Origin: an uncultured bacterium
Lineage (GTDB): Bacteria; Patescibacteriota; Minisyncoccia; Phycocordibacterales; UBA9973
Reading direction: 5' to 3'
Assembly: GCA_903894565.1 (NCBI GenBank)
Contig: CAITQP010000011.1
Location: 70,515 to 134,514, forward strand
DNA: 64,000 bases
This document shows, piece by piece, positions 1,137 to 59,682 of the stretch (its first letter is position 1; every line of letters starts with the position of its first letter). The notes under the pieces are model-generated. The model searched no databases. It saw nothing but the letters and a program-made list of their open reading frames with translations, and was not told the DNA's origin. Both the position numbers and the translations under genes were made by a program.

Positions 1137-2138
1137 ATGGAGCCTTTTGATGGAAACAATGAGAATACAATCAAAGAGCCGGTTTCGCCCAACGGGCGAA
1201 ACCGGCTCTGGGCGTTTCTCGTCGCATTTCTTATCGCGCTCAGTTTTTGTTGGTTTGCAATAAAGGCACCGAGTGGCTTTCCGCAAGAGGGAGCAACTGT
1301 AACGATCGCAAGCGGGGAGTCGCTCAAATCCGTTGGTACAAAGCTCCAGAATGCAAATATTATTCGTTCCCGTGTTGTATTTTCAAGCCTCGTTACGTTT
1401 ATGGGCGGAGAAAGAAGTATTTCTCCAGGAGATTATGTATTTAAAAATGGAGAATCACTACTTTCAATCGCACAACAAATAGCTCGTGGACAACACGGAG
1501 TTGATCAAATCAAAATTACAATTCCAGAAGGTGAGACGAATAGAGAGGTAGCAGATACAATCATCAAAAAAATTCCAAATTTTGACATACAAAAATTTCT
1601 TTCTATTTCAAAATCAAAAGAAGGGTACCTATTTCCCGAAACATATTTTGTATACCCAGCGGTTACTGCAGAAGAATTGAATCAGGAAATGACGGCAATG
1701 TTTGACCGACAAACGAAAGAACTATTCACGCGAGAGATACTTAACAAAGAGAGTCAAAGCGATATCGTCATCATGGCGTCATTGATTGAGCGTGAAGCAC
1801 ATGGTGATGACGACAGGGCAATGATCGCTGGGATACTTTGGAATCGTATTCAAAAAGGTATGTCGCTACAAGTCGATGCGACGGTAGCATATGCAAACAA
1901 CAAACCGGATACACAACTGCAGAAAAGCGATTTTTCGATTGATTCGCCGTACAATACTTATAAATACAGAGGTTTACCACCGGCGCCAATCGCTAACCCC
2001 GGACTCCTTGCACTCAAAGCTGCCATTTCTCCCTCAAAAACTGGTTACCTCTATTATCTTCACGACAAGCATGGTACTATCCATTACGCGAAAACTTACG
2101 CCGAGCATTTGAAGAATATTGCTCGATATCTTAAATAA
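1137..2138 (+). CDS. mltG: endolytic murein transglycosylase MltG (YceG family)
   Basis: N-terminal TM helix. Motifs YLFPETY, LIEREA, DATVAYA, SPYNTYKYRGLPPAPIANPG typical of YceG/MltG. Confidence 0.85.
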   Translation: MEPFDGNNENTIKEPVSPNGRNRLWAFLVAFLIALSFCWFAIKAPSGFPQEGATVTIASGESLKSVGTKLQNANIIRSRVVFSSLVTFMGGERSISPGDYVFKNGESLLSIAQQIARGQHGVDQIKITIPEGETNREVADTIIKKIPNFDIQKFLSISKSKEGYLFPETYFVYPAVTAEELNQEMTAMFDRQTKELFTREILNKESQSDIVIMASLIEREAHGDDDRAMIAGILWNRIQKGMSLQVDATVAYANNKPDTQLQKSDFSIDSPYNTYKYRGLPPAPIANPGLLALKAAISPSKTGYLYYLHDKHGTIHYAKTYAEHLKNIARYLK

Positions 2139-2154
2139 ATCAGCATTTAATCTT

Positions 2155-3585
2155 ATGGAAAAACACTACTATCCGACCATTGGTCTTGAAATTCACGCCG
2201 AACTTCGCACGAACTCAAAAATGTTCTGTGGTTGTAAAAACGACCCTGACGAGACCAAGCCAAACGTGAATATTTGTCCGATTTGTATGGCGCATCCGGG
2301 AGCAATTCCCGTGCCAAACAAACGCGCGATTGAGCAAGTCATCCGCGTTGGTCTTTCAATTGATGGAACAATTGCAGACTTCACCGAATTTGATCGCAAA
2401 AATTATTTTTATCCAGACATTCCAAAAGGCTATCAAATTTCTCAATACAAATATCCGATTGTCTCTGGCGGAAGTCTGGCTGACATGAAAGTAACTCGTA
2501 TTCACCTTGAGGAAGATACTGCGACGAGTAAACATGACCGAGGCGACTTTTCATTGATTGATTTCAATCGTGGGGGTGTGCCACTCATGGAGCTCGTAAC
2601 TGACGCTCAAACATTCGACGATATCGAAACTGCTGCAAAAACTGGCGGAGATTTTGGTCGCGAATACCAACTTCTTTTGCAGTATCTTGGTGCTTCGTAC
2701 GCCAACATGGAAAAAGGTGAGATGCGTGTAGAAGCAAACATTTCAATTTCGCCTGACCAAAAAGTCTGGGGCACAAAAGTTGAAGTAAAAAATCTTAACT
2801 CATTCAAGAGTGTCGAGCGTGCTATCCGCTACGAACTCAATCGCATGCGTGATTTGTACGAAGAAGGACGACAAGGGGAGATCGTTCAAGAAACACGTGG
2901 TTGGGATGAAATGAAGGGCAGCACATTTAGTCAGCGCGCAAAAGAATCCGCAGCTGATTATCGATATTTTCCGGATCCAGATATTCCAAAATTAAAATTG
3001 ACGGAGCTTTTTGACATGGATGCGCTCAAGATCGCACTTCCCGAGCTTCCTGTGGCAAAACGTGCGCGATATAAGAAAGATTACGGAATCAAGGATGAGG
3101 ATATCGAACGATACGTGAATGATTTTGAACTCGCTGTTTGGTTTGAGGAAGTGATCAAAGCATTGAATGATTCTGAGAAAATAAAAGTTGCATCAAACTA
3201 TACGACATCTGACTTGCTTGGAATTCTGAAAAATGATTCTGAGGCAAAAAAGCCATCACCGAAAAATTTTGCGGAGCTTGTCGCTCTCGTGACTGAAGGC
3301 AAAGTATCTTCACGTGCAGCAAAAGATATTCTTGCAATGATTGTAAAAGTTGACGGCTCGCCGAATGCGCTCGCCGAACAGCATGGTCTTATTCAGAAAA
3401 ACGATGAAGGTGCACTCAAAGCAATAGCTCAAAAAATCATCGAAGCAAATCCTAAAGTTGTCGCTGATTACAAATCTGGCAAGGAAGCTGCAATCATGAG
3501 CTTGGTTGGACAAATGATGAAAGAAACCAAAGGAAGCGCGAACCCCGCAATCGCATTAAAATTAATAAAAGAGCTTGTCGCGTAG
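2155..3585 (+). CDS. gatB: Asp-tRNA(Asn)/Glu-tRNA(Gln) amidotransferase subunit B
   Basis: MEKHYYPTIGLEIHAEL... N-terminus and full-length GatB/YqeY architecture. Start moved to the ATG at 2155, just after the mltG stop. Confidence 0.9.
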   Translation: MEKHYYPTIGLEIHAELRTNSKMFCGCKNDPDETKPNVNICPICMAHPGAIPVPNKRAIEQVIRVGLSIDGTIADFTEFDRKNYFYPDIPKGYQISQYKYPIVSGGSLADMKVTRIHLEEDTATSKHDRGDFSLIDFNRGGVPLMELVTDAQTFDDIETAAKTGGDFGREYQLLLQYLGASYANMEKGEMRVEANISISPDQKVWGTKVEVKNLNSFKSVERAIRYELNRMRDLYEEGRQGEIVQETRGWDEMKGSTFSQRAKESAADYRYFPDPDIPKLKLTELFDMDALKIALPELPVAKRARYKKDYGIKDEDIERYVNDFELAVWFEEVIKALNDSEKIKVASNYTTSDLLGILKNDSEAKKPSPKNFAELVALVTEGKVSSRAAKDILAMIVKVDGSPNALAEQHGLIQKNDEGALKAIAQKIIEANPKVVADYKSGKEAAIMSLVGQMMKETKGSANPAIALKLIKELVA

Positions 3586-20707: not shown

Positions 20708-20822
20708 GCTCCGATTTTAGCACGCCAGAATATTGGGGGAAGTAGGCAAACAGGGAAAGCGTGTTACTAACGTGTGAATAGCCTCCATCGCGTTTTTGTT
20801 CTCAGTTTGGTATACTCGGAAT

Positions 20823-21767
20823 ATGAAAAAAGTCCTCCTTTCCGGCATTAAACCGACTGGTGATATGCATCTGGGCAACTATTTTGGTGCCATTAAGCAA
20901 TTTATCGACATGCAGGATTCGTACGAATCATATATTTTTATTGCCGACTTGCACGCACTTACAACCGTACGTGACCGAGAAGAACTCCGCAAAAATATTT
21001 TTACAATCGCAGCGACATATATGGCCTGCGGACTTGATCCCAAAAAGGTCACGTTGTTTCAACAGTCTGCAATCGGCGGGGAATTATGCGAGCTTACCTG
21101 GATGTTCAATTGTTTGACCACAGTGCCATACCTTGAACGAGCAGTGGCATACAAAGACGCGATCGCAAACGGTAAAGAAGCGACTGTTGGACTCTTTGAC
21201 TATCCAATCCTCATGGCCTCGGATATTCTGATGCAAAATCCCGATGTTGTTCCTGTCGGCTCTGATCAAAAGCAACATATCGAATATGCTCGAGATACAG
21301 CAGAGAAATTTAATCGCATTTGGAGTGAACAATTCAAGATGCCAGAACCGCTCATTCTTGAATCAACTGGAATTGTTCCAGGAATTGATGGGCGCAAGAT
21401 GAGTAAGAGCTATGGAAATACAATTCCACTATTCGCAAGTGATGCTGAAATTGAAAAGGCTGTCATGAGTATTGTTACGGATTCATCAGGTGATATTCCG
21501 ACAAACGTGTACGCAATACATAAGCTTTTCAAATCTGAAGCCGAACTCGCGCCATTGTACGAAACAAACAAAGGCAAATATAAAGCATCAAAAGACGCGC
21601 TCGCAAATGATATCAAGGCGTTTGTCGCTCCGATGCGCGCTCGATATATAGAACTGTGTGCGAATCCTAGTCTTGTTGAAGATGTATTATCAGCTGGTGC
21701 GAAAGTTGTAAAGGTTCGTGCTGAACAAAAAATGGTCGCTGTTAGGAAATCAGTCGGATTACTGTAA
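20823..21767 (+). CDS. trpS: tryptophan--tRNA ligase
   Basis: HLGNYFGA (HIGH) and KMSKSYGN. Start trimmed to ATG 20823 (MKKVLLSGIKPTG). Confidence 0.92.
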   Translation: MKKVLLSGIKPTGDMHLGNYFGAIKQFIDMQDSYESYIFIADLHALTTVRDREELRKNIFTIAATYMACGLDPKKVTLFQQSAIGGELCELTWMFNCLTTVPYLERAVAYKDAIANGKEATVGLFDYPILMASDILMQNPDVVPVGSDQKQHIEYARDTAEKFNRIWSEQFKMPEPLILESTGIVPGIDGRKMSKSYGNTIPLFASDAEIEKAVMSIVTDSSGDIPTNVYAIHKLFKSEAELAPLYETNKGKYKASKDALANDIKAFVAPMRARYIELCANPSLVEDVLSAGAKVVKVRAEQKMVAVRKSVGLL

Positions 21768-22048
21768 TGAATACAAAATACGAAAAAGAGTTTATCGACA
21801 CGTTGATGCGAGTTGCACAAGACAAAAAAACACTTCATAATTTCCTTGTAGGCATTTTAACACCAGCGGAGCACAAAGAAATCGTTACTCGTTGGCAGAT
21901 CGTCAAGCGTCTCGTAGAAGGAGATACTCAGCGAACGATTGCCAAAGATCTTGAGGTGGGGATCGCAACAGTTACTCGAGGAAGTCGTGAACTTACAAAT
22001 CCGGTTGGGAACCTTACTTATATAATTAAGAAGAATTCAAAAAAGTAA
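21767..22048 (+). CDS. TrpR-like protein, YerC/YecD family
   Basis: Small HTH protein FLVGILTPAEHKEIVTRWQIVKRL...RTIAKDLEVGIATVTRGSREL. Start overlaps the trpS stop (TAATG). Confidence 0.7.
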   Translation: MNTKYEKEFIDTLMRVAQDKKTLHNFLVGILTPAEHKEIVTRWQIVKRLVEGDTQRTIAKDLEVGIATVTRGSRELTNPVGNLTYIIKKNSKK

Positions 22049-22051
22049 TCT

Positions 22052-22297
22052 ATGGAATTTCTCGTCAACGCAATAAAAATTTTGATCATGTCGATCCTCT
22101 CGATTTTTTATTATCCAATCAATAGTGCGTTTTTGTTCTTACAAAAGCACTACCGCGATTGGCAAGTAAATGATCGTGTATCGTTTTATCTTGCAACACC
22201 GCTCTATTTTCTTCTTTTCCTTGTTACCTCAATACTTTCAATTCCACTTGAACGTATGGGGGAGGCGTACCATCCACCACTCGGAGGATTCCGATAG
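22052..22297 (+). CDS. small hydrophobic hypothetical protein (81 aa)
   Basis: ORF only. Two predicted TM segments. Confidence 0.3.
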   Translation: MEFLVNAIKILIMSILSIFYYPINSAFLFLQKHYRDWQVNDRVSFYLATPLYFLLFLVTSILSIPLERMGEAYHPPLGGFR

Positions 22298-22334
22298 TTT
22301 TCCATTTATAATTTGCATGGTATAGTGCGTATGC

Positions 22335-22525
22335 CGTCGACTCCGCTGACACGGACGAGGCAAAGAGAAGAAAATCCTCCACAATTGTGACAGGATGAGT
22401 AGACCTCTTCGGGTGCGCCCGTCATAGCGCAGAATGAGTCGAAAAGTAGGGTGGCACCGCGACAAACATCGCCCCTACAAATGTATTATTAATTAATACG
22501 TTTGGAGAGGCGATTTTTGTTTGCC
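22335..22525 (+). promoter_or_regulatory. T-box leader (tRNA-sensing riboswitch) upstream of aspS
   Basis: Antiterminator GTAGGG-TGGCACC-GCG...CGCCCCTAC matches the T-box consensus AGGGUGGNACCGCG. The competing terminator is ATCGCCCCTAC/GGAGAGGCGAT plus TTTTTGTTTG. GAC+purine specifier candidates lie at about 22346-22358 and 22386-22390. Confidence 0.7.
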
Positions 22526-22542
22526 CTCCGGCGCTTTACACA

Positions 22543-23931
22543 GTGAAAGACAGAATTTATACAAGTGAGCTATCAGGCAAAGTTGGTGAGACAGTAGTAC
22601 TCGCAGGATGGGTTGATGTGCGTCGAGATCAAGGCAAAATGGTCTTTTTTGACTTGCGTGACATGAAAGGAATTATTCAATGTATCGTACTTCCAATGCA
22701 TACTGATGCGATTACAATCGCAAAAGAAATTCGTCCAGAATGGGTGCTTCGTCTTGAAGGAAAGGTCAATAAGCGTCCAGAAAAAAATATTAACCCGAAC
22801 ATCCCGTCGGGTGATGTAGAACTTGAGGTGACCGCCATCCAAGTGCTCAACAAGTCTGAAACACCACCATTTGAGTTGAATACTGATACGATGCAAGTTG
22901 GCGAGGATATTCGTATGAAGTACAAATATCTCGATCTCCGTAGTGAGCGCATGCAAAAAAATATTCGCATGCGTGACAAGATCATCACTTTTTTCCGCGA
23001 ATACATGCATCAAAATGATTTCATTGAAATCGAAACTCCAATGATGACAAAGGGTACGCCCGAGGGGTCACGCGAATACGTCATTCCGTCGCGACTCTCG
23101 CCAGGCAATTTTTACGTACTTCCACAATCTCCACAGCAATTCAAACAGCTTTCGATGGTTGCTGGATTCGAAAAATACTTTCAAATTGCGCGATGTATGC
23201 GCGACGAAGATACACGAGGCGATCGTCAGCCTGAATTCACTCAGCTCGACTATGAATTGTCATTCGTCGAGCAAGAAGACGTGATTTCATACACAGAAGC
23301 AATGTATATTGCTATGGTGCAGACTTTGTATCCCGAAAAGAAAATTCAACAGATTCCGTTTCCTCGCATTACATACGCGGAATCAATGGAAAAATACGGA
23401 AATGACAAACCTGACATGCGTGTAAACAAAGAAGATCCCAACGAACTGGCTTTCTGTTGGATTGTAGATTTTCCAATGTTTGAAAAAGACGATGAAGGGG
23501 GAGTTCAGGCCGTTCACCATCCTTTCACATCAGTCAAAGTTGAAGATGCAGAGTTGCTCGATACTGCACCATTACAGGCTCGCGCGAATGCGTATGATAT
23601 CGTGCTCAATGGATATGAGCTCGGTGGCGGGTCAATTCGTATTCATCAGCGTGAGATGCAAAACAAGATCTTTCAGCTACTCGGACTTTCACAGGAGGCG
23701 ATCGAAGCTCGCTTTGGACACATGTTGCAGGCATTTGAGTATGGAGCACCACCACACGGCGGATGCGCACAAGGTATTGATCGTATCGTTATGCTTCTCC
23801 AAAATGAACCAAATATCCGCGAAGTCATTGCCTTTCCAAAGACAGGTGAGGGCAAAGATTTGATGATGGGTTCACCAAGTGAAGTTTCAGAGAAACAGCT
23901 TCGTGAATTAAATATTCAAATTAGAAAATAA
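22543..23931 (+). CDS. aspS: aspartate--tRNA ligase, short (archaeal/eukaryal-type, no GAD insertion; likely non-discriminating)
   Basis: GTG start. OB anticodon-binding domain plus class II catalytic core (FRDE, QSPQ, GGGSIR motifs). 462 aa. Confidence 0.9.
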
Positions 23932-25870: not shown

Positions 25871-26212
25871 TTATTTTTTCTTGCGCAAAGACAATCCTTT
25901 CCCGACACGGGTAGGAGTATGATGATGCTTCTTGTTGAGACGAGCGATGACAACTTTGTATCCATCGCCACCTTTGTTGAGCCATTTTGAGACGCGAGCA
26001 ATGGTTGTAGATGAAAGTCCGGTTTCCTTTTCAATCTGAGTGTAGGGGAGTTTGTCCGTGAGCATTTCCGCAGCCCGGTAACGATTGCCAAATTCAGTTA
26101 TCTCAGGTTCGGTGAGTAAGTCACGCAAAAATCGCTCCGCCTCATCTGTAGATTTGAGTGAAAGTAGCGCTTCAACAAGCTTTTTAGTTTTTGTATTATC
26201 AAAACCGCTCAT
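25871..26212 (-). CDS. TrpR-like protein, YerC/YecD family (second copy) with basic His-rich tail
   Basis: FLRDLLTEPEITEFGNRYRAAEMLTDKLPYTQIEKETGLSSTTIARVSKWLNKGGDGY. C-terminal KKHHHTPTRVGKGLSLRKKK. Confidence 0.65.
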   Translation of the reverse strand: MSGFDNTKTKKLVEALLSLKSTDEAERFLRDLLTEPEITEFGNRYRAAEMLTDKLPYTQIEKETGLSSTTIARVSKWLNKGGDGYKVVIARLNKKHHHTPTRVGKGLSLRKKK

Positions 26213-58307: not shown

Positions 58308-59351
58308 CTATATTTTTTCCCACGGAGCACCGCTATGAATAAAATGTCCGTGTGCTGCAACATTTTTGTACACTGCATTTCGGAGTCCAAGTTTTTCAAT
58401 AATTGCTTTTGGCGCGAAATCAAATCGTCCTTGTATTACACTTGAAATATCTTCGCCATTTTCATTGGTGACTGTTAGCATTACAGGTTCTGCTACACCG
58501 ATAGCGTACGCGACAGAGACGAGCGCTTCTTTTGCTACTCCTTCGCGCACAAGTGCTTTTGCAACAAAGCGCGCCATGTAGGCAGCAGAGCGATCTACTT
58601 TGGTCGCATCTTTACCACTGAAACACCCACCGCCGTGCGGAATAATTCCCCCGTACGTATCAACCATGATCTTTCTTCCGGTGAGTCCTGTGTCAGCATC
58701 AAATCCACCAATCGTGAACATGCCACTTGGATTAATAATCACTCTCGCCGTTTGAAGCGTGTCGCCGAAAATTGGTTTGAGTACGACTTCACGAATTCCA
58801 TTTTCGATCTCCGTATGCGTTACTTGTTCGGTGTGCTGTACACTCACCACAATCGTATCGACGACATCATCTACCATCGTGATCTGAGTTTTGCCATCAG
58901 GAAGAAGCCACGGAAGACGCGCACTGGTTTCTGGTTTGTCGAGCAATTCGACGATACGTGCAGCATACACAACACCGCGCGGAAGCATCTCAGGAGTTTC
59001 GTTCGTAGCGAATCCGTACATGATCCCTTGATCCCCCGCTCCATCATGATTCACCCCTTCCGCAATCTCTGGTGACTGCTTCACAATCTGCGTGCGAATT
59101 TCGATGTCGCTCGTGAATCCAATCGAGCGATACACATCACGCGCAATGCTCTCGACATCGACATATGCAGTCGAAGTAATCTCGCCACCGAGTGTGAGCA
59201 GTCCATGCGCTCCAAATGCCTCAATCGCAACACGTGCAAATGGATCTTGTGCAAGATGTGCATCAAGAATTGCATCTGAAATTTGATCGCACACTTTGTC
59301 AGGGTGACCGCGACGAACATTTTCGACTGTGTATTTTTTTGGTATATACAT
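58308..59351 (-). CDS. metK: S-adenosylmethionine synthetase
   Basis: MYIPKKYTVENVRRGHPDKVCDQISDAILDA, GGGAFSGKD, full-length match. The upstream 52 codons of the track ORF are riboswitch, not coding. Confidence 0.9.
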   Translation of the reverse strand: MYIPKKYTVENVRRGHPDKVCDQISDAILDAHLAQDPFARVAIEAFGAHGLLTLGGEITSTAYVDVESIARDVYRSIGFTSDIEIRTQIVKQSPEIAEGVNHDGAGDQGIMYGFATNETPEMLPRGVVYAARIVELLDKPETSARLPWLLPDGKTQITMVDDVVDTIVVSVQHTEQVTHTEIENGIREVVLKPIFGDTLQTARVIINPSGMFTIGGFDADTGLTGRKIMVDTYGGIIPHGGGCFSGKDATKVDRSAAYMARFVAKALVREGVAKEALVSVAYAIGVAEPVMLTVTNENGEDISSVIQGRFDFAPKAIIEKLGLRNAVYKNVAAHGHFIHSGAPWEKI

Positions 59352-59370
59352 AAAGTTTAATAACAAATAG

Positions 59371-59510
59371 TAAGGAGAAGAATAAAAAAAATACTCTTCA
59401 CCCGACAGGTAAGAGTACGACGTGTATCTTCCTTTCGGAATTTGGATGAAGCACCTTGCACTCGGGTAGGTTGCTGGTGGGTCATTGAGCCAAATCTCTC
59501 GCCACACTCT
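59371..59510 (-). promoter_or_regulatory. SAM-I (S-box) riboswitch with intrinsic terminator, leader of metK
   Basis: Minus-strand sequence UGUAUCAAGAGUGUGGCGAGAGAUUUGGCUCAAUGACCCACCAGCAACC...AAGGUGCUUCAUCC..UUCCGAAAGGAAGAUACA matches the SAM-I P1-P4 core. It is followed by the UACUCUU/AAGAGUA hairpin plus U9. Confidence 0.75.
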
Positions 59511-59682
59511 TGATACAAACGATATTCAGTTGTATTGACACATTACCAGAACTCTCCTAAAAAAGCAAAAGCCCGACGCAGATAGGCTACGTCGGGACTC
59601 TTACTTTTTGTCGACCACTTATACATGTATTATACCTATATGTCTATACGATATCAAGCAAGCAGACTGTGGATTTTGTTTT

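Follow-up and report, generated by a model that had tools for sequence, protein, structure and literature searches.

A short-Stem-I T-box leader joined to an intrinsic terminator is predicted to control aspS in a patescibacterium

What controls aspS, the gene for aspartyl-tRNA synthetase (AspRS), in an uncultured bacterium of the Patescibacteriota, and with which parts of its RNA leader? The question is raised by a 64,000-nt stretch of contig CAITQP010000011.1 (assembly GCA_903894565.1), hereafter called the window, in which an earlier note had read the sequence before aspS as a T-box. We found that reading to be borne out by the T-box core, its bulge, the helices A1 and A2, an overlapping terminator, and a score of 101.4 bits with a family covariance model from which the window had been held out. 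What the analysis shows directly are the leader's sequence and structure elements, the way these covary among relatives, and helices that exclude one another. Judged from these elements, the leader is very likely a T-box that acts by transcription attenuation and ties the expression of aspS to how far tRNAAsp is charged, built with a strongly shortened Stem I.

The following features make up the 3′ half of the leader:

22441-22461 (+), T-box core AAAAGUAGGGUGGCACCGCG, aligned with Rfam posterior probabilities near 1 across the region
22446-22478 (+), antiterminator, by Rfam alignment with high posterior probability and by alignment to the held-out family model (R1)
22446-22451 with 22473-22478 (+), helix A1, GUAGGG paired with CCCUAC
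22452-22458 (+), 7-nt T-box bulge UGGCACC, whose UGGC is complementary to the tRNA 3′ GCCA
inside 22459-22472 (+), helix A2, GCGA-CAAACA-UCGC
22468-22514 and 22514-22523 (+), intrinsic terminator, a hairpin followed by the U-tract UUUUUGUUUG, by fold and family conservation
22524-22529 (+), post-terminator CCCUCC, complementary to GGAGAGG (22505-22511) of the terminator 3′ arm

The stretch quoted in the earlier note as the antiterminator, AAAAGUAGGGUGGCACCGCGACAAACAUCGCCCCUAC, lies at 22441-22478 on the plus strand, 65-102 nt 5′ of the aspS GTG (22543). Its GUAGGG/CCCUAC helix, its UGGCACC bulge, and the competing terminator are all present as described there, with the hairpin of the terminator being longer (~19 bp) than claimed. 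The core pattern GGGTGGNACCGCG matched once in the 64-kb window, against 0.07 matches expected by chance. Folded alone, the antiterminator had a free energy of about -12 kcal/mol, and the terminator hairpin had one of -22.3 kcal/mol (z = -6.4), with none of 200 shuffles being equally stable. Positions 22468-22478 belong both to the antiterminator (A2/A1) and to the 5′ arm of the terminator, making the two helices mutually exclusive.

By its AspRS, the organism belongs to the Patescibacteria (Paceibacteria: Nomurabacteria and relatives). Relatives of the leader were drawn from two samples, namely 80 orthologous aspS loci from Patescibacteria species-representative genomes and a metagenome scan, the pattern of which consisted of the T-box core plus the A1 3′ strand, without Stem I information. 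The scan gave at least 120 loci and the whole leader set comprises at least about 130, so that the family counts given below refer to the matches listed. Nearly all of the listed metagenome loci had an AspRS-like gene 3′ of the leader.

The 5′ part of the leader differs most from the textbook arrangement and contains the following features:

22299-22326 (+), promoter-like site with TTTCCA, a 16-nt spacer, and the extended -10 TGgTATAGT, by consensus scan
22333-22361 (+), ultrashort Stem I of 29 nt with a 3-bp basal helix GCC/GGC, by anchors, covariation, and RNAalifold
22336-22338 (+), bulge GUC of a K-turn, with the tandem pairs G22339.A22358 and A22340.G22357, by sequence motif
22346-22351 (+), terminal loop CUGACA, closed by a 4-bp helix UCCG/CGGA that follows a C41.C56 mismatch
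22348-22350 (+), specifier, the Asp codon GAC with the conserved 3′ purine A22351, placed in the 6-nt terminal loop and not in an internal loop

The specifier of GAC plus a purine anticipated in the earlier note can thus be placed at 22348-22351, where GAC+A points to tRNAAsp rather than tRNAAsn, and the loop reads NN-GAC-A or NN-AAC-A in essentially all listed leaders. The other GAC triplets (at 22339, 22355, 22389, 22403, and 22461) were rejected as specifiers, since they do not occupy conserved loop positions. By its sequence motif, the base of Stem I is a K-turn; the GA of its 5′ strand is invariant in the family, and the position beside the G.A pairs is mostly non-Watson-Crick, as it is in K-turns. 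The earlier note had instead offered AAGAGAAG as the GA-motif, which turned out to be the Stem II 5′ strand with its S-turn loop, the true K-turn being GUC-GA/GA at 22336-22340 and 22357-22358. The window leader lacks the distal Stem I platform, where an AG bulge and the distal loop build the interdigitated T-loop motif to which the tRNA elbow binds.

The short Stem I is a property of the whole family. Anchors defined by sequence only, demanding no pairing (GA, 5 nt, NN[G/A]AC[A/G], 0-1 nt, 5 nt, NA), matched 108 of 130 listed leaders, and at least 6 of the 8 positions were paired in 106 of those 108. The same anchors matched 33 of 212 coding-region windows, only three of which had at least 6 pairs, and just 1 of 130 reverse complements. 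Leaders missing the anchors proved to be small variants of the same short hairpin, and none of those listed has a canonical long Stem I. When 93 distinct sequences were placed in a fixed-register alignment (alignment A2, with N as a placeholder for the optional seventh loop base), compensatory changes appeared at all eight pairs (139 cells). The covariation was 0.52, compared with 0.21 for shuffled alignments (0 of 500 reached the observed value) and 0.15 or less with slid partners.

A promoter-like site adjoins this hairpin. The -10 element of the window ends 6 nt before Stem I, and a TANNNT ending 3-12 nt before Stem I was found in 72 of 90 distinct listed leaders versus 21 of 90 in the control; for an extended -10 the counts were 38/90 and 1/90, respectively, with a peak at 8-9 nt before Stem I. 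Because the -10 adjoins Stem I, the transcript probably starts at Stem I itself, which would leave no upstream domain to take over the role of the elbow platform. An upstream substitute for the platform was rejected on this ground.

Between Stem I and the antiterminator we identified the following:

22363-22409 (+), Stem II, with the base AAGAG/CUCUU, the distal hairpin AUCCU-CAC-AAUU-GUG-AGGAU, and the conserved internal loop AGAAA ... GAGUAGAC, an S-turn motif
22410-22431 (+), IIA/B pseudoknot, IIA being CGGG/CCCG with the loop UGCG and IIB being UGCG paired with CGCA (22428-22431)
22432-22445 (+), discriminator purine string GAAUGAG-UCG-AAAA, with UCG (3 nt) at the usual site of Stem III

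In 35 leaders built like that of the window (alignment A3), the Stem II base was 99.4% paired and all five of its positions showed compensatory changes, the IIA stem was 95% paired with covariation, and the UAGA of the Stem II internal loop was invariant. Taken together, the Stem II base and IIA gave a covariation of 0.73 versus 0.32 for shuffled alignments (0 of 500 reached it). The conserved motif AGAA ... AGUAGA suggests that the internal loop adopts an S-turn fold. As the alignment columns were shifted at IIB, its pairing was evaluated in each sequence against shuffles, and IIA and IIB of at least 4 bp were found in 33 of 37 leaders, versus 22% of the shuffles. The Stem III hairpin is absent from the window leader, with the flanking purines GAAUGAG ... 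AAAA kept; across the family, AAUGAG or AAUNAAG is separated from the AAAGUA on its 3′ side either by 3 nt or by a Stem III hairpin.

This architecture also accounts for how poorly the element is detected. In a permissive scan of 22040-22620 (581 nt), the full-length Rfam model RF00230 matched 22328-22479 with 31.1 bits (E = 3.9e-5), and its alignment replaced ~74 distal Stem I positions by 4 nt and 17 Stem III positions by 3 nt, which explains the low score. As this is far under the gathering threshold, an Rfam scan of the whole window at gathering thresholds reported only a SAM riboswitch and no T-box. Among other family members, eight scored 30-51 bits with RF00230 and seven were missed at E ≤ 0.01; with a threshold of 93 bits, riboswitch censuses of genomes from the Candidate Phyla Radiation (CPR) miss the class. 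An RNAalifold consensus computed from 29 sensing domains, that of the window being excluded, independently recovered Stem I (3 + 4 bp, 6-nt loop), both the base and the distal helix of Stem II, and the antiterminator with A1, the 7-nt bulge, and A2; 15 of its 24 pairs show compensatory changes. The held-out family model R1, built from the same alignment, had its sole match in the 64 kb at 22333-22478 (E = 1.5e-23); of the 80 orthologous loci from genomes, it detected 10, with scores of 36-100 bits. The earlier note had named two findings that would speak against a T-box, namely the lack of distal AGAGA/GNUGA motifs in Stem I and a covariance score below threshold. Both are literally the case here, yet the element is a T-box variant with a short Stem I.

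The binding of tRNA, the sensing of its aminoacylation, and termination in vivo, which we infer from these parts, would proceed as follows. Transcription would start about 7 nt past the -10, right at Stem I, the terminal loop of which would offer GAC+A for pairing with the tRNAAsp anticodon, GUC. Stem I would be bent against Stem II by the K-turn, and the S-turn purines and the IIA/B pseudoknot would then clamp the codon-anticodon helix, replacing the missing elbow platform; such a clamp would be the decoding module of the actinobacterial ileS T-boxes. The UGGC of the bulge would pair with the free 3′ GCCA of uncharged tRNAAsp, including the discriminator G73. UGGC fits G73 of both tRNAAsp and tRNAAsn, where this base is an identity element. 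Uncharged tRNA would thereby stabilize the weak antiterminator (~-12 kcal/mol) against the stronger terminator (~-22 kcal/mol) and permit readthrough into aspS, whereas a charged tRNA could not dock, the terminator would form, and transcription would stop at 22514-22523.

We assign the output of the window leader to transcription because a U-tract comes right after the hairpin, the GTG lies 20 nt past the end of that tract and outside the hairpin, and no Shine-Dalgarno (SD)-like sequence occurs within 15 nt of the GTG (22524-22545 inspected). The sole SD-like motif, GGAGAGG at 22505-22511, is in the terminator, 31 nt 5′ of the start. In the family, a hairpin (free energy ≤ -10 kcal/mol) plus U-tract stands 3′ of the T-box in 95 of 102 listed leaders, with a median of -28.6 kcal/mol, and the start codons of the listed leaders lie a median of 25 nt 3′ of the U-tract start. 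A mainly translational switch, in which the hairpin serves as a sequestrator of a ribosome-binding element, or a dual control of both steps, is an unlikely alternative that nevertheless has some points in its favor. The ultrashort Stem I has so far been linked to translational control (PMC7583486; PMC7778990), and GGAGAGG in the terminator 3′ arm would be freed in the antiterminator state. However, this motif is too far from the start codon for an SD sequence, the tract UUUUUGUUUG directly follows the hairpin of the window, the GTG is outside that hairpin, and the same arrangement of hairpin and U-tract prevails among the listed leaders.

The translational alternative does gain from a sub-group of leaders preceding full-length AspRS genes, which have no U-tract and in which the A1 3′ CCCC can pair with the SD sequence AAAGGGGU, located 6-7 nt 5′ of the AUG. 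In these leaders the platform appears to be an SD sequestrator in place of a terminator, so that both kinds occur in the family. In this sub-group (L098, L101, L154, L162, L113, L137, and L164), a tRNA-Thr(GGU) gene, sometimes with tRNA-Met, lies directly 5′ of the leader. An exact 5-mer complement of the terminator 3′ arm recurs past the terminator, in 28 of 89 listed leaders versus 3 of 89 in the shuffled control, and it covaries (UGAAG/CUUCA). In the window this is the CCCUCC after the U-tract, which is transcribed only once the termination decision is made. A short upstream open reading frame (ORF), with UUG in the U-tract as its start, GGAGAGG as its SD sequence, and an overlap with the GTG, was considered and rejected, since its frame and stop are not conserved in L029 and L065.

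Whether the codon in the loop matches the gene behind it can be judged from the downstream genes. That of the window is as follows:

22543-23931 (+), aspS with a GTG start, encoding a 462-aa bacterial-type AspRS without the GAD insertion domain, by Pfam, NCBIfam, and alignment A4

Pfam found tRNA-synt_2 and the OB anticodon-binding domain in the protein and no GAD, as expected in the earlier note, and alignment A4 shows a clean deletion of ~120 aa after DKPDMR, at the site of the GAD domain, relative to the full-length enzymes of L113 and L137. The assumption that this short enzyme is of the archaeal type did not hold. The bacterial models NF001750 (in two stretches) and TIGR00459 gave 658 bits (cutoff 443) and 597 bits, respectively, compared with 226 bits (cutoff 353) for NF003483 and 197 bits (cutoff 368) for TIGR00458 on the archaeal or non-discriminating side, which makes it a bacterial enzyme with a deletion. 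The GAD-less AspRS of ~460-480 aa is the common form among the 80 Patescibacteria orthologs. A look-up of the exact AspRS sequence of the window found no record of it. In the listed leaders, the specifiers are distributed over three AspRS types, whose assignment rests on the NCBIfam models:

insertion-less bacterial AspRS (~460-480 aa), GAC in 36 and AAC in 4
full-length bacterial AspRS (584-589 aa), GAC in 6 and AAC in 2
archaeal-type "aspartate-tRNA(Asn) ligase" (427-456 aa), GAC in 46 and AAC in 6

GAC therefore has a share of ~88% and AAC one of ~12%, and the AAC leaders stand before true AspRS genes and not before genes for asparaginyl-tRNA synthetase (AsnRS). At some loci, including L093, L125, and L148, a full-length tblastn match to AspRS lies 3′ of the leader without a long ORF in genetic code 11, possibly reflecting an alternative code (e.g., the UGA recoding of some CPR lineages) or assembly frameshifts.

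Three loci additionally carry T-boxes in front of thrS, the cores of which are at oriented positions 3323 in L095 (minus strand), 2574 in L109, and 3517 in L170. The hairpin CCGCGC-UCACCAA-GCGCGG of these leaders places ACC+A in a terminal loop of 7 nt, their bulge reads UGGA, and 2 kb further 3′ comes an aspS of the archaeal type that has a GAC leader of its own. The terminal-loop specifier design is therefore not confined to aspS, and, with GAC or AAC before three types of AspRS and ACC before thrS, the codon matches the gene.

The AAC specifiers, which also occur on leaders of orthologous aspS genes (L078, L090, L099, and L159), would fit AspRS enzymes that also charge tRNAAsn. The window encodes gatB at 2119-3585, confirming its presence as noted earlier, and no AsnRS was found among the tested ORFs of the 64 kb. 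From the presence of GatB, this negative result, and the AAC codons on orthologous leaders, a non-discriminating AspRS activity is plausible. The window also encodes the Cys, Glu, and Trp synthetases (CysRS, GluRS, and TrpRS), none of them with a T-box.

The linkers between Stem I and the core have bimodal lengths among the listed leaders, which sorts the family into two architectures. Window-like leaders have the Stem II domain together with a 6-nt loop, in 72 of 76 listed. Minimal leaders have a linker of 24-33 nt, and the S-turn Stem II is absent in 29 of the 30 listed leaders with a 7-nt loop, which is typically CUGACAA and resembles an anticodon loop in length and flanks. Measured from the foot of Stem I through the last base of A1, the minimal sensors (e.g., L065, L062, and L115) are only 83-97 nt long, L065 and L115 having 83-84 nt, and 14 of them are followed by terminators of -23 to -33 kcal/mol. 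Their consensus fold consists of Stem I, an unstructured linker, and the antiterminator only. The linker keeps GUUUUAAAGAG-NNN-AAAGUA, which in window-like leaders has its counterpart in the 3′ strand of IIB and the purine string, and this match suggests that the minimal class arose by deletion. L001, the closest relative of the window (its AspRS is 84% identical), has a leader of different build: the loop has 7 nt, Stem II and the pseudoknot are missing, a Stem III hairpin is present, and the terminator is another one.

Several observations weigh against a functional tRNA-sensing attenuator. In the genome sample, the T-box core was found 5′ of aspS in 10 of 80 loci and nowhere else in the ~620 kb searched. 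With only ~12% of the orthologous aspS genes having a leader, its occurrence is patchy and the leader is dispensable; together with the contrast to L001, this suggests fast gain, loss, and remodeling. The RF00230 score is one third of the gathering score (31.1 versus 93). No gene for tRNAAsp or tRNAAsn was found in the window or in 50 loci, which had Thr, Met, and other tRNAs only. The literature on known T-boxes adds three further points. In transcriptional T-boxes, the elbow contact of a long Stem I is required for fast tRNA capture, Stem III is indispensable for the discriminator, and the G.U pair at the A2 base is the primary steric sensor of the 3′-aminoacyl group (all PMC7583486). The window leader departs from these stated rules on the long Stem I, on Stem III, and on the A2 G.U, as its A2 pair adjoining the bulge is G22459-C22472 in place of the canonical G.U. 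Of the 11 leaders taken from genomes, 10 have G-C at this site and one (L040) has A-U, with thrS leaders from similar organisms retaining the G.U at the A2 base. The discrimination of charged tRNA with a G-C pair may therefore be different or weaker.

The same points could be taken to mean that the leader is the decaying relic of a canonical T-box, acting as a constitutive attenuator or being neutral sequence without any tRNA sensing. Parts that are essential in current models are missing, Rfam gives the leader a low score, orthologs carry it only patchily, and CPR genomes undergo reductive evolution. We nevertheless regard a relic as quite improbable. At least ~130 leaders repeat this reduced design and show compensatory substitutions in Stem I as well as in Stem II and IIA, and the loop codon is kept in agreement with the gene (Asp/Asn for AspRS, Thr for thrS). 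The bulge, the antiterminator, and strong terminators are all kept as well, and a dead element with a terminator of -22 kcal/mol before an essential gene would be deleterious. It is highly improbable that Stem I is a mimic of the tRNA anticodon arm bound by AspRS for autoregulation, like the E. coli thrS operator, since, for all its size of an anticodon arm (a 4-5-bp stem with a 6-7-nt loop) and the resemblance of the minimal-leader loop CU-GAC-AA to an anticodon loop, it bears a codon (GAC, AAC, or ACC), whereas a synthetase-bound mimic would need the anticodon GUC, and it is always linked to the T-box bulge, antiterminator, and terminator.

A T-box attenuator sensing tRNAAsp remains the reading we prefer, and its relatives extend its meaning. 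Judged by sequence and predicted fold, the family constitutes a large lineage of Patescibacteria T-boxes that has gone unannotated, with a short Stem I, mostly no Stem III, and intrinsic terminators as its output. We are evenly divided on the further proposal that this lineage senses tRNA cotranscriptionally without the elbow contact and has been reduced further to working sensors of 83-97 nt, made of a K-turn hairpin, a linker of ~25-30 nt, and a Stem III-less antiterminator. If it is true, T-boxes could do without the elbow platform, without the clamp of Stem II and pseudoknot, and without Stem III, all of which are reported to be essential in some context, a kissing loop plus the NCCA contact would suffice, and these would be the smallest natural tRNA-sensing riboswitches. 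The joining of a truncated Stem I to terminators, the usual loss of Stem III, the G-C in place of G.U, and the loss of Stem II in a sub-class would serve as natural tests of which contacts are required, and the leaders could provide compact tRNA-responsive parts for synthetic biology. The predicted control would also mean amino-acid-specific feedback on an essential synthetase in CPR organisms thought to be minimally regulated, and the alternation of GAC and AAC on AspRS genes would be genomic evidence of AspRS serving both tRNAAsp and tRNAAsn.

Some other features of the window were also recorded. A SAM-I riboswitch (RF00162, 48.7 bits, above gathering) lies at 59421-59519 on the minus strand, directly 5′ of metK (58308-59420, minus strand), an ordinary arrangement that adds a second riboswitch to this small CPR genome fragment. 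Two small proteins of the Trp_repressor family (PF01371) are encoded at 21767-22048 (+) and 25871-26212 (-), the former directly 3′ of trpS (20796-21767), and a TrpR-like gene paired in this way with trpS could be the protein-based equivalent of the RNA control of aspS. Between the TrpR-like gene and the aspS promoter are an ORF for 81 aa of hydrophobic character (22052-22297, +), which had no Pfam match, and, just 5′ of the promoter, a weak terminator-like hairpin (22281-22294).

How does the leader compare with known T-boxes? No description of T-boxes in the CPR, Patescibacteria, or Parcubacteria was found in the full-text literature, the journal coverage of which is incomplete, so that a prior description is possible, and nothing relevant on a truncated Stem I joined to a terminator was found in the searchable literature. 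Published work associates the long elbow-binding Stem I with transcriptional leaders and the ultrashort Stem I with translational actinobacterial ones (PMC7583486, PMC7778990, PMC11297988), and the short-Stem-I model of TBDB was applied only to Actinobacteria and to prior Rfam matches (PMC7778990). The closest likeness is to the actinobacterial ileS T-boxes ("class II") of M. tuberculosis, M. smegmatis, and Nocardia farcinica, which share the K-turn Stem I with an apical specifier and no platform, as well as the S-turn in Stem II plus the IIA/B pseudoknot as a compensating anticodon clamp. In particular, 22333-22431 of the window matches the 99 nt of the N. farcinica ileS T99 module, with its parts in the same order (PMC10651847). 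Unlike the actinobacterial leaders, which have an SD sequestrator, an AUC codon, and ileS, that of the window has a terminator with a U-tract, GAC (in the family also AAC), and aspS, belongs to the Patescibacteria, has its Stem III cut to 3 nt, and carries G-C and not G.U as the A2 pair.

With the canonical transcriptional T-boxes (RF00230, e.g., Bacillus subtilis tyrS) it shares the T-box sequence, the UGGN bulge, the competition of A1/A2 with a terminator, the K-turn, a codon followed by a purine, Stem II, IIA/B, and the predicted transcription attenuation of an aminoacyl-tRNA synthetase gene. It differs from them in that a hairpin loop of 6 nt takes the place of ~74 distal Stem I model positions and Stem III is missing. 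The minimal sub-class of the family resembles the glyQS T-boxes in lacking Stem II and IIA/B and in having a single-stranded linker between Stem I and the discriminator. However, glyQS keeps a long Stem I with the elbow platform, Stem III, and the all-G/C codon GGC, whereas in the minimal CPR leaders both the platform and Stem III are missing and the codon is GAC or AAC; Stem II is retained in the leader of the window. Finally, T-box control of the indirect Asn pathway in Firmicutes, through a two-codon "NT-box," was reportedly described by Saad et al. in 2013. The aspS T-boxes of Firmicutes resemble the present family in controlling an AspRS gene and in having Asn specifiers that would fit a non-discriminating AspRS acting with GatCAB. 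A T-box-regulated aspS is known from Clostridium acetobutylicum (PMC2494555). These Firmicutes leaders differ from the Patescibacteria family in their canonical long Stem I, in their organisms, and in the forms of AspRS that they precede.

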